From Candidatus Omnitrophota bacterium (GTDB taxonomy: Bacteria > Omnitrophota > Gorgyraeia > 2-01-FULL-45-10): 64,000 nt of DNA. The position numbers were made by a program, and so were the translations under genes. The stretch is taken from contig JAGVGJ010000027.1 in NCBI GenBank assembly GCA_020057115.1, positions 5,058 through 69,057 of the forward strand. The letters are read 5' to 3'. Below the pieces are notes generated by a model. That model was not told the DNA's origin. It ran no database searches and worked only from the letters and a program-made list of their open reading frames with translations. The stretch's first letter is position 1. The number at the start of each line of letters is the position of its first letter. Shown piece after piece: positions 10,701 through 54,172 of this stretch.

Positions 10701-11935
10701 ACGGCAAGCCAGTGGTCAAGGTGACCGATAACGGCGAGGGCATAACGCCGGAGAAGCTGGCCCAGATGCAGCAGCCGTTCTTCACTACCGGAGGCACGGG
10801 TATCGGCCTTACCGAGTCGCGCATAATAGCCAAGGACCATGGCGGCTCGATCGATGTGCAGTCAGAGCCTGGCAAAGGCGCTATGTTCATAGTCCGCCTG
10901 CCTCTCGCATCAGCACCCGTCTCTATACCGCCTGTCGTCGAGGTCGCTGGGCTGGTGGCGCCGGCACCAGGCGAGAGGGAAGTGGTGAAGGTTGAAAAAG
11001 TGACTACGCCTTTGACAAAGGTGGAAGAGGCTTCCAGGAGGCGTGCGAAAAAGGCTGGCCTTGAGATAGCGGTTTACCGCAAGAATGTAGTTCCGATGGC
11101 TGAGGAATTTGCCAGGTCCAAGGATATCGAAACCCTCAGGCGCGAGCGAGATATATTGCAGCAAAAATTCGAAAGAGGCGAGACATTGCCTATTTACCAG
11201 GATGAAGCGTATGAGCTTGCTATAGAGATGCTAGAGGGTGCGGCGCCGGCTATAACTCCGAGCCAGGTCATCAAGACCGCACTTGCGGATGCGGCTCAGG
11301 GAACCGCGAATATAATAGTCATGGCAGGGTCTGAGATGTATGTTGCCCAGCAGACCAGCATAAACCGCACTATGGCACAGCAGCTCGGCAAGACGCAGAA
11401 TATCACGGTAGTTCCTTACAGCTATAAATACGGGGAGAATATCGATTGGAAGGCCGGCATAACAAAGGTCTTGTCTATGGCAGTGCAGGACCTTCACGCC
11501 AGGATCAAGAAAGGCGATGCTACTGCGCGCGTGATAGTATTTGTGCCATTCGACGGCGTGAAAGATGTGAAGGCGATGGTGGCAGGCATAGACGCCGATA
11601 TGGTGCCCAGGGTGACGGTCGTCGGCGAAGCCAATATGCCGATGGACGGAGGCATAGATAACATAGTCCATATAGCGTCAGGCGTAAGCATGCTTGAATA
11701 TGAAAGATTCCGGAAAGGCGATTACGGTGATGCTGTCATGCCGCAGGAGTCCAAGATGCGCTTAAATGACCTCATGAAGCTTCTGGTCGTAGATCCAGCC
11801 GCTATCGATATAGGAAAACATCCGGATATAATAGACAGGATCCTGGACGGCCTTACCGCCATACCGCTCAGGCCGATCACCGGAGAAATATCCCAGCGCA
11901 TAGAGAGTATGAAGAAAGTCCTTCAATCACTTTAA
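1793..11935 (+). CDS. Giant multidomain protein (3380 aa), a signalling/enzyme mosaic. Order of elements: N-terminal signal/TM anchor; TraB/GumN-like motifs; CPBP (CAAX/Abi) intramembrane protease-like domain; kinase-like DxxxxN loops; an HExxH motif; degenerate and canonical GGDEF motifs; HisKA-like H-box plus HATPase_c.
   Basis: A single uninterrupted 10.1 kb ORF. All antisense ORFs inside it are short and low-complexity. The motifs I read in the translation are listed below.
- Hydrophobic anchor ALVVAIVFFFNTIYLDVALA.
- MIHIQDAH … AVIVTGGFHSENL, which resembles the two signature motifs of the TraB/GumN family.
- EEGLYRG, FIADH and HLTIN, matching the three CPBP motifs EExxxR, FxxxH and HxxxN.
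- FRVDFRPENAIL and IPRDMHAENIM…VVMVDLGD, which are protein-kinase-like.
- VSHEFMHE, an HExxH motif.
- LNIQNFKMEFNDRGNSLGPEVG…YNDGKSYFVIFED, a degenerate GGDEF-like stretch, and FRVGGDEFAKII.
- ASFSHASNRLTEI (H-box-like) followed by DLANNAYKYA, DNGEGI and GTGIGL, the N, G1 and G2 boxes of a GHKL/His-kinase ATPase.
Alternative start at M13 (nt 1829). Confidence 0.85.
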   Translation: MFRDRHPKKGLAMEKKNFFRQIVKAFIKHRARATALVVAIVFFFNTIYLDVALAAKTDAGLASVSTPSASTSKTSQPYKDLNIKDFILPDYLGTIKDRYISPSASGDVMIHIQDAHCNQPCQNKIADIISYLNSEYGIKVINLEGGSGEYDTAVFTRIGDMNIRQKVAETFVGEGMLNGGEYYAVLNPEKASLWGLEDASLYVKNLDVYRDSLKHKDEVDKYLKSLNHALSSLKAKMYSKDLLELDLKTSAYKSDNIDMRAYLAYLCDAAVRKGMGIDKFADIASLKKAIDLEKSIDFRTADVEREELFKALSKRLSKNAMEEFAAKAIEFKAERISPEVFYGYMLSRARSSGLKTDKYPELAKYLAYVSSYASIDKIKLTKEIESLENALKESYFENEGQRELASLSKNLIILANIFNLKLSKDDYDYYLANEGNFETALYAKFIQKNASIYKIADRLDNGVSDLDTYRKEISKFYEYSLKRDDAFMRNMKFGGGPGSRGQGPDSEVRGAVIVTGGFHSENLCELFKKSGISYISIMPSFKIEEGYACPYFKLLAGQTDGMQNRLYSIISSETRTSGMQIASMLSSAIAEAVWGKARVNAFRAAVEIDTMVTEGKRVLVVNDKGEVLKDARGEELVFGEGEDKPIRIAELLGIPSAEAPDVYAVPVQAVAPQKAAPAITPAPAAPVIRPLGGAVTGWLKRLTPGMPEWARALIAAPIVEEGLYRGFPLLASMATVLIAGAGFNWQLIMIGSVFFQIPAGLKFIADHYPKGRAPPSVIIKMLLAPSIVAIINAVILPLVFTNPFMFTGAAILSHLTINLAVMIANAIFPSVNIGFAAIGVSSGRPGPATSNIETLKRMMRDHASALERSAWDRSGRLGRYMLLMRELLDKGVFRVDFRPENAILTDNAMSAQTFDYDKLYEATNVSWDETKYFIFASVIQPARYVFRELARDASGKERADWFSEYFNDYLDAMFQAGVAKNIIGARSSRQRARIVGLVDAYNKNREDVSILQKQIATLKGKLKELESASRSPQTDAVKRSIEENISRIGSEYEKRSSVMRFISDDIETFLKESFQKVPMARLDQAEREWVYSHPRLAMLKRLGMNDEYDALVRQRRVIFSIVGQKGLAASEVRTRQGVADKNITRPVDIDSGLQQLLRAGVGKFAQGGINGVYERRQFISDLNAMIVSMRQGMSFAQSFENAMKEKDANYKLASSYRDILTMLKGPEGAGIETAATAFMKRLASRDAAAWSQVNMVMPEGYVFKMPLGKDLTFLEFKDIGKMPARQLAGKVFKVDSATSALSAVDMEGETGRLFLFALSRRHAGELIRIVNSTVDLPTGERAAISTIIFQDREQIAITRDALGLFTRELGGIQRQAEFLSMAAKDVPGLINPTTYFEINGKVFGSASKKFDAAQEVRKEIDKDIGRENVIREGMEKIDVKIKLSSAPFGAFTPYRIFDSSGNGISVKRYQNGVITIGARRNVDGKVMAVGVDETMSAEDLADENRLYGLIESLNRRAPGVDSDAMIRKVFTGMGILLPGVGEPALMHAGFGIAMSGYAFASVEDVEAHRVALQGEIDKGITPSSFVKDKVIIGGKEIQIVIHKTVLDRLDAVKKTLQGFIEECIKIRGPDYEATLRTKLAGKPLIFDALTRSPNLYGNCQNDGYIYINTNSPIQLDAVGVSHEFMHEADIFTDSETDEQALAKKDVELMQYVGIDIAKFMERLKDVTMPTGYLAAALAAIASARPVGTAAPMRLEGENLIASCDRSNACDLPNRHRYVEDLVKKLREGKRVEVVSLNIQNFKMEFNDRGNSLGPEVGHLFGDFGIQAVADALPKAIKATLEEKGIKGNFAVYNDGKSYFVIFEDMPAGFSATDALESMLKDDNTAFKRSVVKSVISETKKVKKWNDEATADFTKNFTTRNFNMYAGISAPASLKDEVGSGVDILKLAQRAVAQADLSAKAAQMRTGEILNAIFQQSDMEGKTEADIRKLIMDRAQSARTMAISAWRPYGAHVEDEIVALAKYSPKGEYEVIYRPIPEVYNEEATYENLINQYRVALKARDPAKVLKAKEKLYDKMLFYVPEPSVRSRYVRPIIVGMERFRDAINGLIRAPPQADWSGTFRVGGDEFAKIIFNAKTGVLRILRFDANNLGKMNAAWGSRIGDRVIDDMLRLIDKVQDPNDLMEYIYRYFDNTNERGENFRDNPLELTDTDHAYILRELVRLDIKDTSRYLISDESGRNYLVKVPPLSLTHQETGRSYKTGPSVSVGLVEIDTHLIPGKDRMRDFSPIQGRADSTAETVKSSIKRYQSEHDGAIDFAEVNRLMVNSQPFNTKALTTFERSPIDPLREEFARFIVSKLEKPAAPVTPEMAPVVPAAPALDFNVRIEAVSFKGVEAESWNKYKELLDMAQEIVSSIPRSELLTIIRNISGNKTLRFEDISKDIAISYFAEGVHKYVFRVAFSTKEGKPLEILLAAKKEKNLKDISGHELQNLKKLHGRGVPKFGGSFRSKDGRLWYLEEFIAGDTVGALQKQGALKDNVKRGIVATMLLIATGLNGMIPRDMHAENIMVEKGTGRVVMVDLGDRRLHITGKDATDAHRMLFIGMLLSQYGVNDKERPELDHVFFDAIANDRSLSEEGSLEMLQKAYAELEKRGQAGVVGYLAKEGRNMFVSVGAQNRDAARMDDFVGTFTRSLGSYLAKSGQLRGPPIMPISTAPVAAAVPGIVSLTDNIAEDMALRNVIALASFSHASNRLTEIMGMVQIVMTLTSDMIEILKKENASDAMLNEMRDIRRGMVDDGISKIIELHKKAIEQMRSGGKKYAPAEVSSWKEEYLKAYRSFEASAKRFDGVKEKMAAAVTDKELPKLLKWYGDVAPKLDDVLSDRASLMTGELKDELIDLREVLDRELFIKLLQAVVNNPATERYFDIRMPDGPVMVKGNRISLSALFTDLANNAYKYAEKAQKGNAKVIIELALENGKPVVKVTDNGEGITPEKLAQMQQPFFTTGGTGIGLTESRIIAKDHGGSIDVQSEPGKGAMFIVRLPLASAPVSIPPVVEVAGLVAPAPGEREVVKVEKVTTPLTKVEEASRRRAKKAGLEIAVYRKNVVPMAEEFARSKDIETLRRERDILQQKFERGETLPIYQDEAYELAIEMLEGAAPAITPSQVIKTALADAAQGTANIIVMAGSEMYVAQQTSINRTMAQQLGKTQNITVVPYSYKYGENIDWKAGITKVLSMAVQDLHARIKKGDATARVIVFVPFDGVKDVKAMVAGIDADMVPRVTVVGEANMPMDGGIDNIVHIASGVSMLEYERFRKGDYGDAVMPQESKMRLNDLMKLLVVDPAAIDIGKHPDIIDRILDGLTAIPLRPITGEISQRIESMKKVLQSL

Positions 11936-31597: not shown

Positions 31598-32593
31598 ATG
31601 GCGAAGATCTACTATGACAAGGACGCGGATCTAAATGTGTTGAAGGGTAAGAAGGTCGCAGTCATCGGCTACGGCATACAGGGCCGCAGCCAGAGCTTGA
31701 ACCTGAGGGATTCGGGGATAGATGTGATCGTAAGCGAACTTCCCGGAACGAAGAATTATGAGCAGGCGAAGGCCGATGGTTTCAATCCGGTCTCTGCCGA
31801 AGAGGCCGCGAAAGAGGCCGACATAGTCCAGGTATTGACCGAAGACCATGTGCAGGCAAAGGTTTACAAAGAGAGTATCGCGAAGCACATGACCAAGGGC
31901 AAAGCTCTCGTCTTCTCCCACGGCTTCAATATTCGTTTCAAACAGATAAAGCCCACCAAAAAGATAGACGTATTCATGATAGCCCCGAAAGGGCCCGGCG
32001 CGCTTGTCCGCAGGATGTATGAAGAGGGTAAAGGCGTTCCATGCCTGGTGGCGATATACCAGGACGCTACCGGTAATGCCTTGAAGATCGCGCTTGCTTA
32101 TGCCAAAGCGATAGGCGGGGCGAGGGCAGGAGTTATAGAGACGACATTTGACGAGGAGACAGAAACAGATCTCTTCGGCGAGCAGGCAGTCCTCTGCGGC
32201 GGCGTTTCCGAGCTTATCAAAGCAGGTTTTGACACGCTCGTAAATGCAGGATACCAGCCCGAGATAGCTTATTTTGAAGTGCTCCACGAGCTTAAGCTCA
32301 TCACTGACCTTATACAGGAAAAAGGTATAAGCGGGATGAGGCGGAGCGTATCCAACACAGCGTGCTACGGCGATGTGACCAGAGGCAAGAAGATCATCAC
32401 CGAGCGCACTCGCAAGGCTATGGACAAGATGCTGAAAGAGATCAGGTCCGGTAAATTCGCCAGGGAGTGGATAAAGGAGAATACGGAAGGCCAGAAGAAC
32501 TTCAGGGCTATATTGGCCAAAGAAGACGGCGACAAGATAGAGAAGGTAGGTCAGGACCTGAGAAAGATGATGCCGTGGATGGAAAAGAAATAG
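31598..32593 (+). CDS. ilvC: Ketol-acid reductoisomerase
   Basis: A 331-aa protein: …[22 protein letters not shown]…VLTEDHVQ…, a class I KARI. Confidence 0.92.
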
Positions 32594-32672
32594 GGTCTAG
32601 GGGCCAGGGTCAAGGGTCCAGGAAAGAAATAAAATCTTTCTGGACCCTGGACCCCGGACCCTTGCCCCTGAC
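32594..32672 (+). repeat. Intergenic GC-rich palindromic element R1 (GGGTCTAGGGGCCAGGGTCAAGGGTCCAGG – AT-rich loop – TGGACCCTGGACCCCGGACCC…)
   Basis: An inverted repeat built from GGGTCCAG-like heptads. It starts right after the ilvC stop and ends before the leuA RBS. Confidence 0.8.
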
Positions 32673-32684
32673 AGGCAGAGTGCT

Positions 32685-34196
32685 ATGGACAAGATAATTA
32701 TATTCGACACGACGCTGCGCGATGGAGAGCAGTGCCCCGGCGCGAGCATGAACAATAATGAAAAGCTCGAGATGGCCAGGCAGCTCGCATCTCTTGGCGT
32801 TGACGTGATCGAGGCGGGATTTCCCGTATCGAGCCCCGGGGATTTTGAGGGCGTCAAGAGCGTCGCAAAGAACGTGAAGGGCCCTGCCATATGCGGCCTG
32901 GCAAGATCCATCGCCAAGGATATAGACGCCGCCTATAATGCCGTCAAATATTCAAAGAGGCCCAGGATACACGTATTTTTGGCCACGTCCAAGATCCACA
33001 TGAAGTATAAGCTCAAAAAAGCCGAGGACGAGATACTGAAGCTTGCCGTATCTGCCGTTAAATATGCCAGGAAGAAGTGCGATGATGTCGAATTCTCCCC
33101 GGAAGATGCCTCCAGGACCGAGAGGGGATTCCTCCACAAGGTCGTCGAGAGCGTTATTGCGGCCGGGGCAAGGACAGTGAATATCCCCGATACCGTAGGA
33201 TATTCCACGCCTTATGAGTTCGGCGCTATCATCAAGGGCATAAAAGAAAATGTGCCGGATATAAATAAGTGCGTGATAAGCGTCCATTGCCACAATGACC
33301 TCGGGCTGGGGGTCGCGAACTCTCTTGCGGCAGTGCTGAACGGCGCCCGCCAGGTGGAATGCACCATGAACGGCCTTGGCGAAAGGGCCGGCAATGCTTC
33401 CCTGGAAGAGATCGTTATGGCCATCAAGACCAGGAACGACGTCTTTAAAGGCCTGTATACGAACGTGAATACGCGCGAGATCTATAAGACGAGCCGCCTG
33501 GTCTCTAAGCTGACGGGCATGGTCGTCCAGCCGAACAAGGCGATAGTCGGCGCCAATGCGTTCGCGCATGAATCGGGCATACACCAGGACGGCATATTAA
33601 AAGAGCGCATCACTTACGAGATAATGAAGCCGCAGGACGTCGGCGTGGGAGGCACGCAGCTTGTCCTGGGCAAGCATTCCGGAAGGCACGCCTTTCAGGA
33701 GAGGCTCAAGTCTCTTGGATACACGCTCGACGGCGACCAGCTCGAGACTGCGTTCGACCGTTTTAAGGAACTGGCGGATAAGAAGAAATCCATCTACGAC
33801 GGCGACCTCGAAGCCATCGTGGATGAGGAGATATCGAGGATCCCCGAAGAATTCAGGCTTCTGCACTTCAGGATAACGTCAGGGGATGATATAAAACCAG
33901 CGGCGAATATCAAACTTGGATGCCACAATAAGGTTTTAGAGGCTACATCCAGCGGTGACGGCCCTGTCGATGCCTGTTATAAGGCCATCGACAAGATCAC
34001 CGGGATGGGCGGAAAGCTCCTGGATTACCAGATAAGATCGGTCACCAGCGGCAAGGACGCCATCGGCGAGGTATCTGTCAAGATAGGGACCAAGGGAAGG
34101 GTCGTATCAGGCAGAGGATCCTCGACAGACATCATAGAGGCGAGCATAAAGGCGTATATAAACGCCGTCAACAAGCTCGCATACAAGACAAGGTAA
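32685..34196 (+). CDS. leuA: 2-isopropylmalate synthase (LeuA/CimA family)
   Basis: [12 protein letters not shown]…, HCHNDLGL, and a C-terminal LeuA-dimer regulatory domain. Confidence 0.88.
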
Positions 34197-34231
34197 GCCG
34201 ATAGCGTCAAGGTCTCTCTAAAACAATAAGA

Positions 34232-34282
34232 AAAGTCCGCTGACATCCACTCGGGTGGTTTTGTAGGCGGACTTTTTATTAG
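34232..34282 (+). terminator. Rho-independent terminator after leuA (agtccgc…gcggact + TTTTATT, with a nested ccactcgggtgg hairpin)
   Basis: Stem and T-run read directly. Confidence 0.6.
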
Positions 34283-34290
34283 GAAAGAAT

Positions 34291-35133
34291 ATGGCAAAGA
34301 CGATATACGGCATAATAGGTTACCCGGTGAAGCACTCGCTCTCGCCCGCGATGCAGAACGCCGCATTTAAGGCGCTCGGGATCGACGCTGAGTATAAGCT
34401 ATTCGAGGTCGCGCCGGCCGATGTCGGCAGTTTCCTCGATAGCGCCTCCGGGAAAGGCATTTCGGGATTTAATGTGACCGTTCCGCACAAGATAGCGGCA
34501 AAGGAGTATATCGAAAAGCGCGGTTTTCTCGATGAGACCGCCAGGAAGCTCGGCGCCGTAAATACCGTAAATACGGCCGGCGGCTCGTTGAAAGGCTATA
34601 ACACGGACGGTCCGGGATTTTACCGCTCGCTTCAGGAGGACCTTAAATTCGAGCCGGAAGGGAAGAATGTATTCGTACTGGGCTCGGGCGGGGCGGCAAG
34701 GGCGGTCGTCATGTATCTTGGGAATGGGCCTAAGAAGATCTATGTCTTTGACGTGGACGCGAAGAAGGCGGAAGATCTCAAAACGCATTACTGGAAATAT
34801 TACGATGCAGACCGCCTGATGACCGTCTCCAGGTCGGATATGGGGCTTGTGCTATCCCAAAGCCATCTTCTTGTGAATGCCACTCCGGTGGGGATGAAAG
34901 AGGGCGAGGCGATGCCAATCGATAAAGAGTCTCTGCATCTCGGACTTAGAGTCTATGACCTGGTCTACAACAGGCAGACGGAGCTTATAAAGGAAGCATC
35001 CAAAATGAAGCTGCACGCTGTTACCGGCCTTGGGATGCTATTATACCAGGGCGCGATCGCATTCGAGATATGGACGGGACGCAGCGCACCTGTTGATGTC
35101 ATGAGAAAAGCGTTGAAGAGCGCGATAAAGTAA
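34291..35133 (+). CDS. aroE: Shikimate dehydrogenase
   Basis: YGIIGYPVKHSLSPAMQNAAFKALGID…GSGGAARAV. Confidence 0.9.
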   Translation: MAKTIYGIIGYPVKHSLSPAMQNAAFKALGIDAEYKLFEVAPADVGSFLDSASGKGISGFNVTVPHKIAAKEYIEKRGFLDETARKLGAVNTVNTAGGSLKGYNTDGPGFYRSLQEDLKFEPEGKNVFVLGSGGAARAVVMYLGNGPKKIYVFDVDAKKAEDLKTHYWKYYDADRLMTVSRSDMGLVLSQSHLLVNATPVGMKEGEAMPIDKESLHLGLRVYDLVYNRQTELIKEASKMKLHAVTGLGMLLYQGAIAFEIWTGRSAPVDVMRKALKSAIK

Positions 35134-35209
35134 AGGGTCCAGGTCCCAGGCTCCAGGAACCAGAATATTATTTTGCTGGTACCTGGAACCTGGTACCTGG
35201 TACCTAAGG
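35134..35209 (+). repeat. Intergenic palindromic element R2 (GGGTCCAGGTCCCAGGCTCCAGG … CTGGTACCTGGAACCTGGTACCTGGTACC)
   Basis: Same architecture as R1, with a GGTACCAGG variant on the right arm. Confidence 0.75.
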
Positions 35210-35220
35210 ATAGACTGAAT

Positions 35221-35994
35221 ATGGCAATTTTCATTTTCGTGATGGGAGCGATCGTGGGGAGCTTTCTGAATGTCTGTATCTATAGGTTGCAGAGATCCGA
35301 GTCGATAGTTACGCCGGCCTCGAATTGCCCGAATTGCAAAAAGCCGATACCATGGCATGACAATATACCGGTCATAAGCTATCTGTTCCTGACCGGCAAG
35401 TGCAGGTTCTGCGGGAAGATGATATCGCCGCGCTATCTATTGGTAGAGCTCTTGACCGGCGCGCTTTTCCTGACGCTATTCACCGCATTCGGTTTGTCGC
35501 CGAAGTTCTTCGCGTATCTGATGCTCGTATCAGGGCTCATCATAGTGACATTTATAGATTTTGACACGCAGACCATACCTGACCATATAACGTTTACAGG
35601 GATCGCTGCGGGAACAGCGGCTGCGTTGGCGGCGCCTTCCGTAATGGGAGAGGCGTCGAGGGTCTTGGCTTTCTTCAATTCGGCGCTCGGCGCGGTCGTC
35701 GGGGGCGTGATGATATACGCGGTCGCATTGCTGGGTAAGATGGCTTTCAAGAAAGACGCTATGGGGGACGGCGACATATTCTTGCTCGCCATGATAGGCG
35801 CATTCCTCGGGTGGAAGCTGGTGATATTGACTTTCTTCATAGCGCCTATGTTCGGAGCCGTAGTAGGCATAATATTGAAACTGAAGCGCGGAGACGAGAC
35901 GATGCCGTATGGGCCGTACCTGTCTCTCGGCGCGCTTGTGTCGATATTTTTCGGGAACAGGATATTGGAATATTTGTTTTATGGATTAAAATGA
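35221..35994 (+). CDS. pilD: Prepilin (type IV) leader peptidase, A24 family
   Basis: N-terminal Cys box CPNCKKPIPWHDNIPVISYLFLTGKCRFCGK, a catalytic Asp region DGDIFLLAMIGAFLGW, and 6-8 TM helices. The track start at 35173 lies inside R2, so the ATG at 35221 is preferred. Confidence 0.88.
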   Translation: MAIFIFVMGAIVGSFLNVCIYRLQRSESIVTPASNCPNCKKPIPWHDNIPVISYLFLTGKCRFCGKMISPRYLLVELLTGALFLTLFTAFGLSPKFFAYLMLVSGLIIVTFIDFDTQTIPDHITFTGIAAGTAAALAAPSVMGEASRVLAFFNSALGAVVGGVMIYAVALLGKMAFKKDAMGDGDIFLLAMIGAFLGWKLVILTFFIAPMFGAVVGIILKLKRGDETMPYGPYLSLGALVSIFFGNRILEYLFYGLK

Positions 35995-36000
35995 TTAATA

Positions 36001-36068
36001 GGGTCAAGGGGCAGGGGTCCAGGATAAAAACTTACTGGACCCCGGACCCAGGACCCTGGCCCCTTGAC
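36001..36068 (+). repeat. Intergenic palindromic element R3
   Basis: GGGTCAAGGGGCAGGGGTCCAGG – ataaaaacttact – CTGGACCCCGGACCCAGGACCCTGGCCCCTTGAC. The aroC RBS aaggagg follows directly. Confidence 0.8.
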
Positions 36069-36079
36069 AAGGAGGTTTT

Positions 36080-37204
36080 ATGCTTCGATATTTAACAGGC
36101 GGTGAATCTCACGGCAAGTGCATACTGGCCGTAATGGACGGCGTGCCGGCCGGTCTTCACATATACAAATCTTCGATAGATAAGGAGCTTGCAAGGCGGA
36201 TGGTGGGATATGGCCGGGGCAAGCGCATGCAGATCGAGGCCGATAAGGCTGAGGTGCTTTCCGGCGTCCGGAAGAACATCACTATAGGCAGCCCGATCGC
36301 CATGATCGTTGAGAACAAGGACCAGTCGATAGACTCGCTTCCCGTGGTCCTGGATCCACGCCCGGGCCATGCGGACCTGGCAGGGATATTGAAATATGAT
36401 CTTAAGGATGCCAGGAGCGTTCTTGAGCGCGCCAGCGCGAGAGAGACCGTGGGGCGCGTCTGCATAGGGGCAATAGCCAAGATGCTCCTTGCAGAGTTCG
36501 GGATAAGGGTCATGAGCCATGTGATAATGGTCGGAGGCATTGAGGCCAGGACAAAAGGCCTGGGATTCAACCAGATAATAACTCTTGCCGAGAAATCGGA
36601 CCTGAGGTGCGCTGACTACAAAGCGGCGGCCCGCATGAGGGAAGAGATAGACGCTGCCGCTAAAACCGGCGATACTCTGGGCGGTATATTTGAGGTCATA
36701 ATAAAAGGCGCTCCTCCCGGCCTCGGAAGCTATGTCCAGTGGGACAAGAGGCTGGACGCCAACCTGTCCCGGGCCATCATGTCGATACAGGCGGTGAAGG
36801 GTGTCAGCTTCGGAATAGGCTTCAAGCTAGCGGAGCGAAAAGGTTCGATAGTCCACGACGAGATATTATACGACGGGAAGATAGGTTTTTACAGGAAGAC
36901 CAATAATGCCGGAGGCATCGAGGGCGGCATGACCAACGGCGAAGATGTCGTCATGCAGGCCGTGATGAAGCCGATAGCTACATTGAAAAAGCCGCTTGCG
37001 AGCGCAAACATCAAGACCAAGAGGCCTGTTAAAGCCGTCGTGGAGCGCTCGGACGTATGCGCTGTCCCGGCAGCCGGGGTCATAGGCGAGTCTATGGCGG
37101 CCGTTGAGATCGCAGGCGCCATGATCGAGAAATTCGGCGGGGATTCCGTCACCGAGATGGTGAGGAATTATGAGGGGTATTTGAAGCAGGTGAAAGAAAT
37201 ATAG
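36080..37204 (+). CDS. aroC: Chorismate synthase
   Basis: MLRYLTGGESHGKCILAVMDGVPAG… and a conserved C-terminal FMN-binding region. Confidence 0.92.
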   Translation: MLRYLTGGESHGKCILAVMDGVPAGLHIYKSSIDKELARRMVGYGRGKRMQIEADKAEVLSGVRKNITIGSPIAMIVENKDQSIDSLPVVLDPRPGHADLAGILKYDLKDARSVLERASARETVGRVCIGAIAKMLLAEFGIRVMSHVIMVGGIEARTKGLGFNQIITLAEKSDLRCADYKAAARMREEIDAAAKTGDTLGGIFEVIIKGAPPGLGSYVQWDKRLDANLSRAIMSIQAVKGVSFGIGFKLAERKGSIVHDEILYDGKIGFYRKTNNAGGIEGGMTNGEDVVMQAVMKPIATLKKPLASANIKTKRPVKAVVERSDVCAVPAAGVIGESMAAVEIAGAMIEKFGGDSVTEMVRNYEGYLKQVKEI

Positions 37205-37279
37205 TAGGGTCAAGGGGCAGGGGTCCAGGGTCCAGAATAAAAACTTACTGGACCCTGGACCCAGGACCCTGGCCCCTTA
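37205..37279 (+). repeat. Intergenic palindromic element R4 (near-identical to R3)
   Basis: GGGTCAAGGGGCAGGGGTCCAGGGTCCAG – aataaaaacttact – CTGGACCCTGGACCCAGGACCCTGGCCCCTTA. Confidence 0.8.
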
Positions 37280-37285
37280 CGTTTA

Positions 37286-37807
37286 TTGAGGTTTGATTTG
37301 AAGAACATAGTTCTCGTAGGCTTTATGGGTACCGGCAAAACGACGATAGCGACTAAACTGGCGCTGCGGCTTGGGATGCGCTATGTCTCGACCGACAACC
37401 TTATTGAGGCAAAGGAGAAGCGCACAATAAACGAGATATTCACAAATAGCGGTGAAGATTATTTCAGGGACGTGGAATCATCGGTTGCGCGCGAAGTTTC
37501 CGCGATGGAGAATCTCGTTATAGATTGCGGCGGAGGGGTCGTTTTGCGCGAAGAGAACATGGCGAACCTGAAGTCAGGCGGCATCGTGGTATGCCTTACC
37601 GCAAAACCTGAAGTCATAATGGAGCGGACGAAGAAGTATAAACACAGGCCGTTATTGAACGTCGAGGATCCGAAGCGCAAGATACTGGACCTTTTGAACA
37701 AGCGCGCGCCTTTCTATGCGAAGGCAGATCATATAGTAGATACCGGAGATCTTACCGTCAGGCAAGTCGTAGACAAGATAGCCATGATCGCCGAAGGCCG
37801 TAAATAG
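37286..37807 (+). CDS. aroK: Shikimate kinase
   Basis: P-loop LVGFMGTGKTTIATKLALRLG. Length 173 aa. TTG start. Confidence 0.88.
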   Translation: MRFDLKNIVLVGFMGTGKTTIATKLALRLGMRYVSTDNLIEAKEKRTINEIFTNSGEDYFRDVESSVAREVSAMENLVIDCGGGVVLREENMANLKSGGIVVCLTAKPEVIMERTKKYKHRPLLNVEDPKRKILDLLNKRAPFYAKADHIVDTGDLTVRQVVDKIAMIAEGRK

Positions 37808-37822
37808 AGGAGCAGGAATACG

Positions 37823-38158
37823 ATGACTCGCAAGACAAGATTATGGATAGGCGTTACTCTTTTAATAGTTCTCGGGTTCAACTATGCGCTCATCGGATTT
37901 CCTCTTTACAAGAAATCCGAATCGATCAGCGATGCCGCTAAGGCCATATATACAAAGCAGGTAAAGGCGAACAAGGTCTTCAAGGGTTCCAGGGATGAAT
38001 ACCTCCTCGAGGTATTCAGGCGAGAGAAGAAAGCTATCGAGAGCGGGCTTTTGGTGCTCAACTGCGTTTCCGTAAGCGCATTTGTGATCATCATAAGCTG
38101 GATCGGATTCGGGCTTATCGGCCGAAAGGATGATTTCCAGAGTTATGGCAATCCGTAA
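37823..38158 (+). CDS. Small hypothetical membrane protein (2 TM helices)
   Basis: A 111-aa ORF that overlaps the dprA start by 29 nt. No motif. Confidence 0.4.
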   Translation: MTRKTRLWIGVTLLIVLGFNYALIGFPLYKKSESISDAAKAIYTKQVKANKVFKGSRDEYLLEVFRREKKAIESGLLVLNCVSVSAFVIIISWIGFGLIGRKDDFQSYGNP

Positions 38159-39059
38159 ATTGGCGTTCAGCGACGCGGGTTATCCCAAGAACCTGCGCAA
38201 TATTCACAAGCCGCCGAAGCAGCTTTTCGTGAACGGGACTCTGTTGGCGCAGGATGAGATGGCGGTGGCTATCGTAGGCTCCCGCCGGGCTACGCACTAC
38301 GGCCTGGAGGTAGCTGAGAGGCTTGGATGCGAGCTTGCCGCAAGAGGCGTCACGGTCGTAAGCGGTATGGCCCGCGGCATAGATTCAGCCGCCCACAGGG
38401 GCGCGCTCCGGGCTAAGGGGAGGACCATAGCCGTGATGGGCAGCGGCCACGGCAATATCTATCCTCCGGAGAACAAGAAGCTGTATGACGAAATCGTGAA
38501 GTCGGGGGCCGTTGTGACAGAGTTCGAGGATGACATGGAGCCAATGCCCTATAACTTTCCGCAGCGCAACAGGATAATAAGCGGGCTTTCGCTCGGGCTC
38601 GTAGTGGTGGAGGCGGCGAAGAATTCAGGCGCTCTCATAACGGCGGATCTTGCGCTCGAGCAGGGGCGCGAGATATTCGCGGTGCCGGGCAAGATATCAT
38701 CGGCTACGAGCTCCGGGACGCACGAGTTGATAAAGGACGGCGCCAAACTCATCCAGTCTGCCGACGACATAATAGAGGACCTTAAGACATTTGAGATAGC
38801 GCCGCTGGAGGGCGAGGCGAAAGAGGCCAAGACCGAGGCCATAGCGGCGAAAACCAAGGCGTATATTTATAACTCGCTCACCGACGATGAGAGAGCGATA
38901 TACAAGACGCTGTCGGACGAGCCTGTTCATATAGACGAGATATTCGAGAGGGCCCGGCTCAGCGCGAGCCGGGGTTTGAAGATACTCCTCGATCTGGAGC
39001 TTAAGCGCCTGGTAAAGGAGTTGCCGGGCAAGCAGTACGTGAGAAAGGACGATAGATGA
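38130..39059 (+). CDS. dprA: DNA processing protein A (DprA/Smf)
   Basis: Rossmann-like core VAIVGSRRATHYGLEVAERLGCELAARGVTVVSGMARGIDSAAHRGAL…, plus a C-terminal wHTH. Confidence 0.88.
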   Translation: MISRVMAIRKLAFSDAGYPKNLRNIHKPPKQLFVNGTLLAQDEMAVAIVGSRRATHYGLEVAERLGCELAARGVTVVSGMARGIDSAAHRGALRAKGRTIAVMGSGHGNIYPPENKKLYDEIVKSGAVVTEFEDDMEPMPYNFPQRNRIISGLSLGLVVVEAAKNSGALITADLALEQGREIFAVPGKISSATSSGTHELIKDGAKLIQSADDIIEDLKTFEIAPLEGEAKEAKTEAIAAKTKAYIYNSLTDDERAIYKTLSDEPVHIDEIFERARLSASRGLKILLDLELKRLVKELPGKQYVRKDDR

Positions 39060-41113
39060 GCAAATATCTGGTAATCGTAGAGTCGCCTGCGAAGGCGAAG
39101 ACCATAAACAAATTCCTCGGAAGCGACTATACCGTCACCTCAAGCTACGGCCACGTCATAGACCTTCCGAAGTCCAAACTCGGCGTGGATGTCGAGAATG
39201 ATTTTAAAGCCGAGTATATCGTCATACCGGAGAGGAAGAAGAACCTCGAGACGCTGAAGAAAGAGGCGAAGGGGAAGCTGGCCATATACCTGTGTCCTGA
39301 CCCTGATAGGGAGGGCGAGGCTATAAGCTGGCACATAAAGAACGCCCTTTCGCAGGTAAAGGCCAAGGGCAAGGATAAGGATAAAGACGTGCCTAAAAAG
39401 TTCTACAGGGTCACGTTCGACGAAATAACCAAGGATGCGGTGCTTACGGCCTTCAAGCATCCGCGAGAGATCGACACCAACCTTGTCAACGCCCAGCAGG
39501 CGCGGCGCATCCTCGACAGGATAGTGGGATATACGCTAAGCCCGCTTCTCTGGAAGAAAGTGTCCCGCGGGCTTTCGGCCGGCAGGGTGCAGTCCGTGGC
39601 TGTGCGCATCATAGTCGAGAGGGAGGAAGAGATAAAGCGCTTCAAGCCCCAGGAATACTGGGATATCGAAGCCGAGCTTAAGCGCAAGGCGGACAGCGAG
39701 AAGGAAAAATTCAAAGCCAAGCTCTCTAAATATAAAGGCAAAGATATTGAGATACATACCAAGGAAGAGTCCGAGAGGATAGTTGCGGCGCTAGAGAAGG
39801 CGCATTATGTGGTCGGAGACGTCAGGGAGACGAAGAAGAGAAAGAATGCGCTCGCTCCTTTTACTACCAGTAAGCTCCAGCAAGAGGCTTTTAACAAGCT
39901 GAGATTCCCCGCAGCCAAGACTATGCATGCCGCCCAGGGTCTTTACGAAGGCGTCGATATAGGGGGCGAGGGCGCGGTCGGTCTTATCACATACATGAGG
40001 ACCGACTCGGTCAGGATATCCAATGACGCGCAGGTTGCCGCAAAGGCGTATGTCCTGGAGAAGTTCGGCAAGAAATACTATCCCGAGATTCCCAACGTAT
40101 ATAAGTCGAAGAAGACTGCCCAGGAGGCGCACGAGGCGATACGCCCGGCCCTGCCATTGAGGGAGCCGAACGCCGTAAAGGATCACCTGTCTCCGGAACA
40201 ATTCAAGTTATACCAGCTTATATGGAACCGTTTCATAGCAAGCCAGATGGCGCCGGCGCTCTTTGCGCAGACCACTGTAGACATAAAGGCGGGGGATTAT
40301 CTCCTCAAGACGGGCGCGACGAGCGTGGTCTTCGACGGATTCACGGCAGTGTACGAAGAAGAGAATAAGGAGCCCGAAGAGAAAGAGGAAGAGAAGTATA
40401 AGCTTCCTATTCTTTCTATCGATGAGCCGCTCGACATGCTCGACCTCTTATGGACGCAGCATTTCACTAAGCCCCCTCCGAGGTATTCAGACGGATCTCT
40501 CGTCAAGACGCTCGAAGAGCTCGGCATCGGCAGGCCGTCGACTTACGCGCCTATCATATACACGATCGTTACGAGGGATTACGTGAGGCGCGAATCCGGA
40601 TACTTCAGGCCGACCGAGCTCGGCGTGATAGTGACGGAGCTTCTCTTAAAACACTTCCCGAAGGTCCTGGACGTGGAGTTCACCGCCAAGATGGAAGACG
40701 AGCTCGACGGAGTGGAAGAGGGCGAGATAGATTGGCTCACGGTCATGAAGAGCTTCTACTCGCCTTTCATACATACGGTTGAAGCGGCGAAGCTCCAGAT
40801 GAAGGATGTCAAAAAAGAGGTCGTTCCTACCGGCGAGCTATGCTCGATGTGCGGCAAGCCTATGGTCATAAAGTGGGGCAGGCGCGGCAAGTTCATGAGT
40901 TGTTCCGATTACCCGACCTGCAAGAATGCGAAGTCGATAACTTCAGGCGTTAAGTGCCCGGCCCAGGGCTGCGACGGCGAGCTTGTGGCGCGCCGCTCGG
41001 TTAGAGGGTCTTTCTACGGCTGCTCCCGGTTCCCGAAATGCCGTTATATCACCAAGAAACTGCCTGACGCCGCGGATGAAAAGCCCGAAGGCGAAGCGGC
41101 GGCGCAGGGATAG
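39056..41113 (+). CDS. topA: DNA topoisomerase I
   Basis: TOPRIM N-terminus MSKYLVIVESPAKAKTINKFLG…YGHV. The active-site Tyr region, three C-terminal Cys4 zinc ribbons, and the usual dprA-topA synteny are present. Confidence 0.92.
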   Translation: MSKYLVIVESPAKAKTINKFLGSDYTVTSSYGHVIDLPKSKLGVDVENDFKAEYIVIPERKKNLETLKKEAKGKLAIYLCPDPDREGEAISWHIKNALSQVKAKGKDKDKDVPKKFYRVTFDEITKDAVLTAFKHPREIDTNLVNAQQARRILDRIVGYTLSPLLWKKVSRGLSAGRVQSVAVRIIVEREEEIKRFKPQEYWDIEAELKRKADSEKEKFKAKLSKYKGKDIEIHTKEESERIVAALEKAHYVVGDVRETKKRKNALAPFTTSKLQQEAFNKLRFPAAKTMHAAQGLYEGVDIGGEGAVGLITYMRTDSVRISNDAQVAAKAYVLEKFGKKYYPEIPNVYKSKKTAQEAHEAIRPALPLREPNAVKDHLSPEQFKLYQLIWNRFIASQMAPALFAQTTVDIKAGDYLLKTGATSVVFDGFTAVYEEENKEPEEKEEEKYKLPILSIDEPLDMLDLLWTQHFTKPPPRYSDGSLVKTLEELGIGRPSTYAPIIYTIVTRDYVRRESGYFRPTELGVIVTELLLKHFPKVLDVEFTAKMEDELDGVEEGEIDWLTVMKSFYSPFIHTVEAAKLQMKDVKKEVVPTGELCSMCGKPMVIKWGRRGKFMSCSDYPTCKNAKSITSGVKCPAQGCDGELVARRSVRGSFYGCSRFPKCRYITKKLPDAADEKPEGEAAAQG

Positions 41114-41128
41114 GCCGGTAACGCGCGC

Positions 41129-42004
41129 ATGATCGAAAGATATATAGAGAAATTCATCAACTACCTTAAGGTCGAGAAGAATTCGTCGGAGCATACGATA
41201 ACGAATTATCTCGTGGACCTCAAGGTCTTCGGCGAGTTTTTAGGCGATAAGGATATTTCAAGCGTAGACCATCTCACTTTGCGCAGGTTCCTTGCCGATA
41301 TGCGCGCCAGGAACTACGCCAAGAGGACTGTCGCAAGGAAACTGGCGTCCTTGCGGACATTCTTCAAGTTCCTATTCAGGGAAGGCCTGATAAAGACGAA
41401 TCCCGCCACTGCGGTGATGACGCCCAAGCTCGATAAGCACCTCCCTAATATCCTCGATGTCGATAAGGTGGCAAAGCTCCTTGAAGCGCCTAGCGAGAAG
41501 ACGCTCGCAGGGCTGCGCGACAGGGCGATGTTCGAGACCCTCTATTCGACGGGCGCGCGGGTGAGCGAGCTGGTGGGACTGGACCAGGATGACGTCGATT
41601 TTATAAGCGGCGTGGTGAAGTTGTTCGGCAAGGGCAGGAAGGAACGGATAGTGCCGATAGGCGAGCCGGCGCTCAAGGCCATAAAGAGATACATAGATAA
41701 CAGGATCGGCGTCAAGGTCAAGGACCGTAACGCGATATTTTTGAATAAGGCCGGCGGCAGGTTGACCGACAGGAGCGTGCGCAGGATACTCGATAAGTAC
41801 ATACGCTTATCCAGCATAGTGATGAAGGTGTCGCCTCATTCGCTGCGCCACTCCTTTGCCACGCATCTTCTGGATAGGGGCGCCGACTTAAGAAGCGTTC
41901 AGGAGCTTTTGGGGCACATGAACCTTTCCACGACGCAGATATATACGCACGTGTCTACGGAAAGGCTCAAGGCCGTGTATGACAAGGCGCATCCGAGAGC
42001 GTGA
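41129..42004 (+). CDS. xerC: Tyrosine site-specific recombinase XerC/XerD
   Basis: The R…HxxR…Y catalytic tetrad: …HSLRHSFATHLLDRGADLRSVQELLGHMNLSTTQIYTHV. Confidence 0.85.
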   Translation: MIERYIEKFINYLKVEKNSSEHTITNYLVDLKVFGEFLGDKDISSVDHLTLRRFLADMRARNYAKRTVARKLASLRTFFKFLFREGLIKTNPATAVMTPKLDKHLPNILDVDKVAKLLEAPSEKTLAGLRDRAMFETLYSTGARVSELVGLDQDDVDFISGVVKLFGKGRKERIVPIGEPALKAIKRYIDNRIGVKVKDRNAIFLNKAGGRLTDRSVRRILDKYIRLSSIVMKVSPHSLRHSFATHLLDRGADLRSVQELLGHMNLSTTQIYTHVSTERLKAVYDKAHPRA

Positions 42005-42030
42005 AATGAAAGATGAAAAAAGATATATGG

Positions 42031-42117
42031 TAGGGTCTAGGGGCAAGGGTCCAGGGTCCAGAAAGAAAAAAACTATTTTTTTCCTGGACCCTGGACCCTG
42101 GACCCTGGACCCTACAC
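42031..42117 (+). repeat. Intergenic palindromic element R5, the longest copy: (GGGTCCAG)x≈3 – A/T loop – (CTGGACC)x4
   Basis: GTAGGGTCTAGGGGCAAGGGTCCAGGGTCCAG – aaagaaaaaaactatttttttc – CTGGACCCTGGACCCTGGACCCTGGACCCTAC. Confidence 0.8.
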
Positions 42118-53383: not shown

Positions 53384-53400
53384 CTTCTCGAGTATCGTGA

Positions 53401-53535
53401 ACCCTCTTAAGTGCGGGGTATCTTTACGCGAACGTAAAATTTCCAGCGGAAATTTTACTCGGATAATCGCTATCTTCGTTGAAAGATAGCGATTATCGAC
53501 GTCGCTTCAAGACACCCCGCACTTAAGAGGGTAGC
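53401..53535. other. Structured non-coding module 1. A perfect 18-bp outer inverted repeat (CCCTCTTAAGTGCGGGGT / ACCCCGCACTTAAGAGGG) encloses two perfect hairpins: an 11-bp stem GTAAAATTTCC/GGAAATTTTAC and a 15-bp stem ATAATCGCTATCTTT/AAAGATAGCGATTAT.
   Basis: Read directly from the sequence. No ORF. Confidence 0.6.
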
Positions 53536-53726
53536 TAGTTGCTCCAAGACCACCTCAGCGTCCGCCCGCTACATGAGATCGCAACCTGGGGGGCGGCGAT
53601 TGGATCACGCTCTACACGGAAAGCGGGTGAGTGATCCAATAAAACATTAAGGCGTCGTTTGTAGCGATGACGAGGGAGAATCTTCCTTATATAGCAATGT
53701 ACGGCGTGCTGTCATGTAGGCCCTGG

Positions 53727-53840
53727 AGGGGTAAGGTGTCCTGAAGCGACGTCGAAGGTTGCGATTTTTCAGCGAAAATCGCAACCTTCCGAACGACGTT
53801 CCCTCCGGGAACGGAGTGTTCGCGCAAGGACACCTTACCC
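53727..53840. other. Structured non-coding module 2. A perfect 15-bp outer inverted repeat (GGGGTAAGGTGTCCT / AGGACACCTTACCCC) encloses an approximately 21-bp bulged hairpin (CGTCGAAGGTTGCGATTTT…AAAATCGCAACCTTCCGAACGACG) and a 5-bp hairpin (CTCCG ggaa CGGAG).
   Basis: Read directly. Only a short spurious 60-aa ORF overlaps it. Confidence 0.6.
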
Positions 53841-53896
53841 CGAAAGGGCTATCACAGGGGAACGAGGATGAAAATTCGAATGAGGAGGAGATTTGG

Positions 53897-53932
53897 GCAA
53901 CAAAAAAGACCCTCATTCGAGAAGGTCTTTTT
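53897..53932. terminator. Bidirectional Rho-independent terminator (AAAAAAGACCCTCATTCGAGAAGGTCTTTTT)
   Basis: The hairpin is flanked by an A-run on one side and a T-run on the other. Confidence 0.55.
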
Positions 53933-54172
53933 AGAAGGTGATAGGCCTTAAATAGCTTTCGCTATCGTTCCATCTCCTTTGTATCTTTCTACTTAAAGTA
54001 TGCCACAAGAAAACGAAAAAGGCAAGGGTATGAGGCAAAAAATCTCAAGGGCAATATTCTGGCTTCTGTTCGCATTCTGCGTCATCTCCCTGATAGTGGA
54101 GTTCAAAAAGACCTGCGGCGAAAGATGCGCGGCTCCCGGAAGAGAGCCGGCGTCGATCACAGAGAGGGCAAA

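Follow-up and report, generated by a model that had tools for sequence, protein, structure and literature searches.

The window analysed here, a 64,000-nt stretch of contig JAGVGJ010000027.1 from a Candidatus Omnitrophota bacterium, contains five hairpin-forming elements, R1 to R5, in the gaps of a gene cluster that includes ilvC, leuA, aroE, pilD, aroC, aroK, xerC and waaA. R1 (32591–32672) lies between ilvC and leuA, R2 (35133–35209) between aroE and pilD, R3 (35999–36068) between pilD and aroC, R4 (37205–37279) between aroC and aroK, and R5 (42029–42117) between xerC and waaA; all are read on the + strand, and Pfam matches support the flanking genes. A sequence-only reading of the same DNA had pointed to five such elements, and every one was recovered to within 1–3 nt. 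Each element sits between co-directional + strand genes and, as that reading had also proposed, fills the gap from stop codon to Shine-Dalgarno (SD) sequence. The elements begin −2, 0, 5, 1 and 25 nt after the stop codon (R1 to R5; the ilvC stop codon is the first TAG of R1 itself) and end 14, 14, 11, 19 and 13 nt before the next start codon, so that room is left for an SD sequence only. A tail common to R4 and R5, GAGGTTTGAT, was considered as part of the element and rejected; GAGGTTT is the usual SD context in element-free relatives.

The genes concerned do not form one uninterrupted block, as had initially been supposed. The leuA/aroE gap holds a hairpin followed by a T-run (~34229–34280, GTCCGCC...GGCGGAC TTTTTATT), which on its sequence reads as a canonical terminator; the terminator scan listed only its small inner hairpin (34244–34257). 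A GTCCGTTGG...CAACGGAC hairpin is found at the same leuA/aroE position in two relatives (contig L036, 5120–5275; contig L118, 8226–8312). Given terminator-like hairpins between leuA and aroE, the ilv-leu genes and the aroE-pilD-aroC block are probably separate transcription units.

R1–R5 are homologous imperfect palindromes of 69–89 nt that share one layout: a G-rich 5' arm of three or four GGGTCCA-type heptads, an A/T-rich loop of 11–21 nt (read from the sequence) and a C-rich 3' arm of four or five TGGACCC heptads. The architecture of G-arm, AT-rich loop and C-arm described in the sequence-only reading therefore stands, with two corrections: the unit is the heptad GGGTCCA/TGGACCC rather than a 9-mer, and the loops are not 12–22 nt long. 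Within the left arms the units vary, in an order that is conserved: GGGTCWA, GGGGCMA, GGGTCCA. Against an expectation of 1.26, the motif GGGTCCAG was counted 19 times in the window, a number that none of 100 shuffles reached; 16 of the 19 occurrences fall inside R1–R5. An inverted-repeat search recovered R1, R3, R4 and R5 with arms of 23–40 nt, 82–88% complementarity and 6–12 nt between the arms; the R2 arms were not among the 25 inverted pairs listed, so that the pairing of R2 rests on folds. In Tandem Repeats Finder, R1, R4 and R5 gave period-7 arrays (3.9–4.9 copies) on both sides of the loop, and R2 and R3 did so for the right arm alone; the left arm of R2 was reported as period 14. Aligned to one another, the elements show 72% mean column identity and 60–87% pairwise identity, and a profile built from them with nhmmer detected no sixth family member within the 64-kb window.

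Comparison of the individual copies revealed variation by whole units. The left arm of R1 (32592–32622) reads GGGTCTA GGGGCCA GGGTCAA GGGTCCA and is separated by a loop (32623–32639) from a right arm (32640–32670) of CTGGACC CTGGACC CCGGACC CTTGCCC CT. R3 consists of a left arm (36000–36023), the loop GATAAAAACTT (36024–36034) and a right arm (36035–36068) that is two units longer than the left, which implies alternative pairing registers. R4 has one more GGTCCAG heptad in its left arm than R3; the two are 87% identical and share a common loop, and their differences amount to that heptad, one substitution and the last bases, bearing out the near-identity noticed by the sequence-only reading. 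R5 is the longest and most regular copy, with a left arm at 42032–42061, a loop (42062–42082) that is itself A-run/T-run complementary, and a right arm (42083–42113) of four perfect CTGGACC units (100% matches in Tandem Repeats Finder), the whole closed by GTAGG...CCTAC.

R2 is a variant family member, as was recognised from the start, with 60–68% identity to the other four elements. Its left arm (35134–35163) reads AGGGTCC AGGTCCC AGGCTCC AGGAACC, its loop spans 35164–35175, and its right arm (35176–35206) is a (CTGGTAC)n array that includes one CTGGAAC. One mismatch per 7 nt recurs along the length of the R2 stem. R2 (35134–35206) and a hairpin on the related contig L031 (1794–1857) are (GGTACCW)n arrays that are nearly their own reverse complement, and this near self-complementarity accounts for one mismatch per heptad in stems of the R2 type. 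GGTACC is a perfect 6-bp palindrome and CCWGG nearly one, and the GGGTCCA arrays contain overlapping GGWCC and CCWGG sites in every unit. A further run of four GGGTCCA units at 3277–3305, inside a 3380-aa open reading frame (ORF), was rejected as a family member; it is coding (GGGPGSRGQGP), has no inverted partner and folds no better than its shuffles (z 0.06).

Folding, proposed as a check in the sequence-only reading, bore out the hairpins. Relative to dinucleotide shuffles, the RNA folds of the five elements gave z scores of −4.6 to −9.0 and the DNA folds −4.4 to −11.7, and in neither case was any of 200 shuffles as stable. R1 has a minimum free energy (MFE) of −53.5 kcal/mol as RNA (z −5.9), and R5 of −68.9 kcal/mol (z −9.0; z −11.7 as DNA). 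The predicted stems are 19–36 bp long, and the MFE structure accounts for a small part of the RNA ensemble (frequency 0.03–0.24).

Comparison with Omnitrophota relatives suggested how these junctions came to be filled. The gene order alr-ilvDBNC-leuA-aroE-pilD-aroC-aroK-x-dprA-topA-xerC-waaA-lpxK is conserved across the relatives compared, and for the AroC whose gene lies between R3 and R4 the best named homologues (~70% identity) come from metagenome-assembled genomes (MAGs) of Candidatus Omnitrophota. In the closest relative with DNA, contig L121 (AroC 88% identical), the pilD/aroC and aroC/aroK gaps measure 21 and 2 nt, as against 85 and 93 nt in the window. On the P0004 contig (84%) the pilD/aroC gap is 9 nt and aroC and aroK overlap by 4 nt, and contigs L036, L118, L119 and L120 have gaps of 0–35 nt at most of these junctions. 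R3 is absent from the orthologous pilD/aroC junction of L121, L036, L118, L119 and L120. The compact junctions of these relatives indicate that the compact state is ancestral, and therefore that R1–R5 are, as judged from synteny, lineage-specific and derived insertions of ~70–90 bp into formerly compact junctions (0–35 nt), placed exactly between the stop codon and the SD sequence.

Other relatives carry hairpins at the same junctions that are built from quite different repeat units. Contig L031 has AGGTTCC/TGGTACC at pilD/aroC, a hairpin that resembles R2 but occupies a different gap, and AAAGTCA/TTTTGAG at aroC/aroK. L033 has TCGTATT/ACGAAAT, ATCAGGR/CCTGATA and an 8-nt unit, GTCACCAC/GGTGACNT; L036 and L119 have CATCAGC or CAGCTAT, paired with GCTGAAA; L120 has CTAAATC/GATTTAG; and L121 has a CTATGAA array. 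Since orthologous junctions hold unrelated units or none, turnover there is fast and the elements are dispensable for the operon. Seven is the specific period of these arrays, and one copy differs from another in complete heptads. In 147 kb of Omnitrophota DNA, 19 period-7 arrays were counted, against 0.2 in shuffles, and periods 5, 6 and 8–12 were represented by 0–3 arrays. By manual tally, roughly 14 intergenic heptad arrays of this clade have an inverted partner and four or five do not. The single heptad that separates R3 from R4, together with the status of the elements as insertions relative to the closest relatives, upholds the earlier suggestion of an expanding heptad palindrome family. 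On L119 two unpaired arrays of one heptad run in opposite directions at a distance of ~5.8 kb, (TATACCC)n in ilvD/ilvB (3397–3429) and (GGGTATA)n in aroE/pilD (9187–9219), so that the two halves of a palindrome stand at different junctions.

Uniqueness to the window, which would have refuted the sequence-only reading, does not hold: copies also flank ribH on two further contigs, L122 and L063. The best outside matches to the R1–R5 profile were two elements on metagenome contig L063, one on each side of ribH, both of which start at the stop codon and end before the SD sequence. The homologues of the L063 RibH are from Omnitrophota, and one of them, P0122, which we take to lie on the source contig of the window, is 90% identical to it. 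On L122, a small contig encoding a RibH identical to P0122, ribH is followed by a complete R-type element and preceded by the right arm of a second one. Together with the five copies in 64 kb, the two or more around ribH on L122 give the source organism, or a strain of it, at least seven copies, and the two copies on L063 indicate that a sister species carries the same family at the same junctions.

Pattern-based database scans extended the distribution further, and the copy numbers and taxonomic spread that they give are lower bounds with ascertainment bias. A scan of one genome per species yielded ~22 loci with GGGTCCA-type heptad hairpins, nearly all of them in Nitrospirota and Acidobacteriota MAGs and often directly 5' of an SD sequence plus ATG; eight high-GC matches were dismissed as chance matches in coding sequence. 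The left-arm pattern matched at least 80 loci in Joint Genome Institute (JGI) metagenomes. Among the 80 metagenome loci listed, ~25 are hairpins and ~35 are G-arm-only arrays upstream of start codons; another ~20 were set aside as unrelated, being telomere-like (GGGTCTA/GGGTTTA)n, an L040-type repeat or other non-heptad matches. Many metagenome contigs share one order of unit variants, GGGTCAA-GGGGCMA-GGGTCCA. The earlier suggestion that the family is species-specific is not supported, given the ribH copies in the sister species and the hairpins in other phyla; the sharing across phyla could reflect horizontal transfer or convergence.

Two groups of metagenome arrays deserve mention in their own right. 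Long (GGGTCTA)n or (GGGTTTA)n arrays on L041, L043, L051, L071, L079, L094 and L115 resemble plant/algal-type telomere repeats; they have no relation to the bacterial elements and illustrate the closeness of the unit to telomeric G3N4 repeats. On L075, L096, L086 and L103, G-arm-only arrays (GGGTCAA GGGGCAA GGGTCCA) that have no complementary arm are found on the sense strand, immediately 5' of genes that, judged by eye from their first residues, are cimA/leuA-like, ddl-like, ahcY-like and proB-like. The AAGGGG/AAGGGT units of these arrays resemble SD sequences.

Taken together, R1–R5 probably represent a dispersed family of heptanucleotide-repeat palindromes, in which two inverted arrays of 7-nt units surround an A/T-rich loop. 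Because the copies within the genome share both the order of their unit variants and their loop sequence, they were evidently either copied from one another or homogenised. We propose that replication slippage could lengthen and shorten the arrays 7 nt at a time, that the second arm may arise or be kept through fold-back, template switching or correction within the palindrome, and that copies would spread by recombination or gene conversion rather than through an element-encoded transposase. A palindrome that folds on itself would bring the stop codon and the downstream SD sequence together again in space, so that an insertion at this position might do little harm and hence persist. Other insertions between stop codon and SD sequence would be expected to break translational coupling (in L121, 2 nt separate the aroC stop from the aroK start), which would explain why a palindrome is tolerated there. 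In a polycistronic mRNA the 19–36-bp stem would most likely form an intercistronic stem-loop, which could act as a barrier to 3' exonucleases, as a possible RNase III substrate or as a modifier of translational coupling.

Several observations weigh against this account. Pairs of strain contigs that are at least 99.9% identical (L031/32, L033–35 and L036/37) show no change in heptad copy number, and the sole indel between them is a GAG triplet in a coding region; slippage is therefore not extremely fast. Copy-and-paste mobility is a better fit than independent slippage for the common loops of R3 and R4 and for the order of unit variants conserved across many metagenome contigs. In nine of nine Omnitrophota copies the G-arm lies 5' on the sense strand (p=0.004), and in a wider set the ratio is 33 to 9 (p=0.0003), where the ORF-strand calls are crude and often ambiguous in high-GC contigs. 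This orientation bias hints at strand-specific selection, or at a strand-aware mechanism, which a purely neutral DNA model does not predict.

One alternative is that the elements are selected cis-regulatory RNA structures, whether intercistronic terminators or attenuators that lack a U-tract, RNase III sites or mRNA stabilisers, which would set the relative expression of neighbouring genes and be tunable through shifts of heptad register. Support for this account, which we judge unlikely, comes from the exact stop-to-SD placement between co-directional genes in all five window copies and in those on L063 and L122, from the position of the G-arm first on the sense strand and from the recurrence of the same architecture at the same junctions in many relatives. 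RNase III requires stems of a certain length, and stems of 19–36 bp are long enough; the low ensemble frequency of the MFE structures indicates the alternative registers that such tuning would use. Yet the closest relatives do without the elements at these junctions, and unit sequences are not conserved between orthologous sites. Strand-specific RNA selection was rejected on a comparison of both strands of 18 heptad hairpins, in which MFE favoured the sense strand in 10 and the antisense strand in 8 and G-U counts revealed no consistent sense bias; similar folding of both strands is what would be expected if the palindromes are maintained at the DNA level. Sequestration of the SD sequence was likewise rejected, as the unpaired probabilities of the SD sequence and start codon 3' of R1–R5 were inconsistent between elements, the SD sequence being neither consistently hidden nor consistently exposed.

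Termination in particular found no support, although the sequence-only reading had raised it. None of R1–R5 is followed by a T-run (3' tails, R1 to R5: GACAGGCA, TAAGGATA, AAGGAGGT, ACGTTTAT and ACACAGAG) and the terminator scan returned no + strand site at any of them, whereas hairpins with T-runs do occur elsewhere in the window, at ~34229–34280, 1650–1680 and 53905–53935. A role as factor-independent terminators is thus unlikely. The Rfam search that had been suggested as a check matched no family at R1–R5; at gathering score the only match in the whole window was a cyclic di-GMP (c-di-GMP-I) riboswitch at 1452–1603, and a permissive search of 32.4–42.3 kb gave only generic hairpins resembling miRNA precursors (at most 31 bits against cut-offs of 59–100). 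A literature search did not find the element sequence in any relevant context.

A second alternative holds that R1–R5 are non-autonomous mobile elements, similar to MITEs (miniature inverted-repeat transposable elements), to repetitive extragenic palindromic (REP) sequences or to the REP-derived hairpins known as REPINs, and are moved by a trans-acting transposase encoded elsewhere, for example a REP-associated tyrosine transposase (RAYT) that recognises a GTAG-headed hairpin. A dispersed family with 60–87% identity and common loops, clean insertions relative to relatives, at least seven copies on ~78 kb belonging to the source contig or its strain and the recurrence of one order of unit variants on many metagenome contigs that are unrelated would all be in keeping with such mobility, as would the GTAGGG...CCTAC termini of R5 and the GTAG of R4. 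Nonetheless, we regard it as improbable. The GTAG head is confined to two of the five elements (R1 and R3 have ATAG and R2 AAAG), no consistent target-site duplication was seen by eye in the flanks (TA stands at both ends only in R4 and R5), and no transposase domain, Y1/RAYT included, was found among the window ORFs scanned against Pfam. The at least ten unit families in a few related genomes would demand many cognate transposases, and G-arm-only half arrays of the same family exist. Viral contigs scanned with two patterns gave no match, and thus no evidence for a phage vehicle. A MITE architecture is not present either, as the entire element is palindrome and has no non-palindromic core. The resemblance to REP sequences or to bacterial interspersed mosaic elements (BIMEs), which the sequence-only reading had raised, finds no support in head sequence, in the window ORFs scanned for a transposase or in size, with heptad-periodic elements of 69–89 nt set against palindromes of ~35 nt. 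Identification of R1–R5 as REP elements or as intrinsic terminators is not supported, and in genome annotation such hairpins should be labelled as neither.

The abundance of G-tracts raised the further possibility of G-quadruplex (G4) formation. Seven of the nine canonical G4 motifs of the window fall inside R1, R3, R4 and R5, against 1.5 expected for the whole window; as sequence motifs only, they lie on the + strand of R1, R4 and R5 and on the − strand of R1, R3, R4 and R5, and R2 has none on either strand. That G3N4 heptads serve G4s, with i-motifs on the complementary strand, and that the complementary arm makes each element a hairpin/G4 switch acting on transcription or translation is nevertheless very improbable. 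The G-arm is transcribed first, which would permit co-transcriptional G4 formation, and G4 and i-motif structures have been obtained in vitro from the heptamer repeats GGGAATC (Xanthomonas) and GGGGAYT (Nostoc; PMC4692102). But R2 and most junction hairpins of relatives (AAAGTCA, TCGTATT, CATCAGC, CTAAATC) lack G-runs or G4 motifs, so that G4 formation cannot be the general rationale, and the hairpins that would compete with it are of high stability (−39 to −68 kcal/mol).

Returning to a dispersed family of heptad palindromes, we suggest that the elements are tolerated at operon junctions and are possibly useful there as intercistronic stem-loops. Junctions that are empty in some syntenic genomes, filled in others and filled with unrelated families in still others amount to a natural experiment in which gain, loss, unit drift and homogenisation from arm to arm can be traced, and aroC/aroK with and without R4 provides a defined pair of constructs for asking whether palindromes alter operon expression. 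The individual elements are ordinary for the class of heptad simple sequence repeats (SSRs); it is the junction series that makes a useful system for the study of repeat origin and effect.

Elsewhere in the window, the c-di-GMP-I riboswitch (49 bits, cut-off 35) contains a heptad hairpin of another unit family, TGCGTTG x3.4 / ACGCAAC x4.4, at 1518–1581 on the + strand. At the tip of the riboswitch's second hairpin it forms an insertion of 63 nt, where the Rfam consensus has 2 nt. A bolder and rather improbable proposal would take it together with R1–R5: a lineage-independent generative process would seed heptad palindromes at stop-to-SD junctions and at this riboswitch stem tip (in Omnitrophota, Nitrospirota and Acidobacteriota), the palindromes would be kept as register-shifting, tunable regulators of operon stoichiometry, and the GGGTCAA-GGGGCMA-GGGTCCA order found across phyla would record the horizontal spread of an unrecognised class of mobile RNA/DNA element.

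A terminator-like hairpin with a T-run (~1650–1680) lies 3' of the riboswitch and is followed by the 3380-aa ORF (1793–11935), whose sole Pfam match is HATPase_c near residues 2933–3039. In the window alr and ilvD are separated by ~26 kb (1342–27710), and on L119 and L120 alr directly precedes ilvD. The intervening DNA includes an ABC-2 transporter pair and ~8 glycosyltransferase genes besides the riboswitch and the giant ORF, and looks like an inserted cell-envelope island. Two alike and very stable structured elements lie at 53401–53535 and 53719–53850, within a 741-nt gap (53384–54124); their outer stems of 19 and 15 bp enclose two inner hairpins, one with a perfect 15-bp arm, and their RNA folds reach −83 and −92 kcal/mol (z −10.3 and −8.7). 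Neither had an Rfam match at gathering score, and they could represent an undescribed structured RNA or another type of nested palindrome. Finally, a + strand frame without a stop codon extends over at least 1384 codons (59849–64000) and runs off the end of the window; its residues 11–1383 gave no Pfam match, and the − strand ORFs at 60194–61003 and 62210–62656 are probably spurious.

Among known systems, the REP, BIME and REPIN sequences of Enterobacteria and Pseudomonas are extragenic imperfect palindromes that form multi-copy families and in many cases lie within operons, with co-directional genes on either side. Some REPs stabilise upstream mRNA against 3' exonucleases, and this is the working model that we have taken over for an RNA-level effect of R1–R5. 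REPs are ~20–40 nt long, lack tandem units, share a GT[AG]G head that is conserved and owe their mobility to RAYT transposases; in contrast, R1–R5 are 69–89 nt long and heptad-periodic, have no consistent GTAG head and are accompanied by no RAYT in the scanned window ORFs. With intrinsic terminators the elements share a GC-rich stem-loop 3' of a stop codon, and they differ from them in having no 3' T/U-run, stems that are three to four times longer, and an SD sequence and start codon immediately after.

Closer parallels exist among the heptanucleotide repeats, reported to be the commonest class of long SSR in bacterial genomes (PMC4679880, PMC4692102). TAACTGA direct repeats are known from Beggiatoaceae, Cyanobacteria and Bacteroidetes (MacGregor 2015, PMC4679880), short tandemly repeated repetitive (STRR) heptamers from cyanobacteria, and GGGACCG elements of four heptads from Geobacter metallireducens (PMC2700814). 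Like these, R1–R5 are tandem heptads, intergenic and of patchy phylogenetic spread, such repeats often standing directly 5' of start codons. A post-transcriptional or translational role has been suggested for the STRR, TAACTGA and GGGACCG repeats and is unproven (PMC4679880, PMC2700814). Their arrays are essentially direct (169 direct sets against one indirect in the BOGUAY genome), whereas R1–R5 are inverted pairs that form long hairpins.

The nearest counterparts are the (GGGAATC)n SSRs of Xanthomonas, which number ~185 arrays per genome and form 70–75 convergent inverted pairs with the potential for stem-loops or cruciforms (PMC4692102). They are 89–93% intergenic at an average of 28 nt from the nearest flanking ORF, lie mostly between co-directional genes, are tied to housekeeping genes and often comprise ~4 units, and the length and sequence of the heptamers vary between related species at the same junctions (PMC4692102). 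The prevalence of heptamers has been attributed, in a hypothesis relayed by both SSR papers, to the slippage mode of DNA polymerase (PMC4692102, PMC4679880). R1–R5 resemble the Xanthomonas and Nostoc heptamers (Rehm et al. 2015, PLoS One, PMC4692102) in their 7-nt unit with a G3-tract, and the Xanthomonas inverted pairs in being convergent, intergenic, situated between co-directional ORFs close to a flanking one and, R2 excepted, endowed with canonical G4 motifs. They differ in the unit, GGGTCCA, and in the host, Omnitrophota. Nearly all intergenic heptad arrays of this clade are palindromic, as compared with ~38–40% paired in Xanthomonas and few in Nostoc. Numerous unrelated unit families are found together in the clade, the majority not G-rich; the G-arm takes the 5' position on the sense strand, where Xanthomonas shows no strand bias; and the stop-to-SD gap is filled in its entirety. 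In sum, R1–R5 are, on the evidence of sequence and position, best read as heptanucleotide SSR palindromes of the same kind as the GGGAATC inverted repeats of Xanthomonas, found here in a new phylum and with some distinctive traits.

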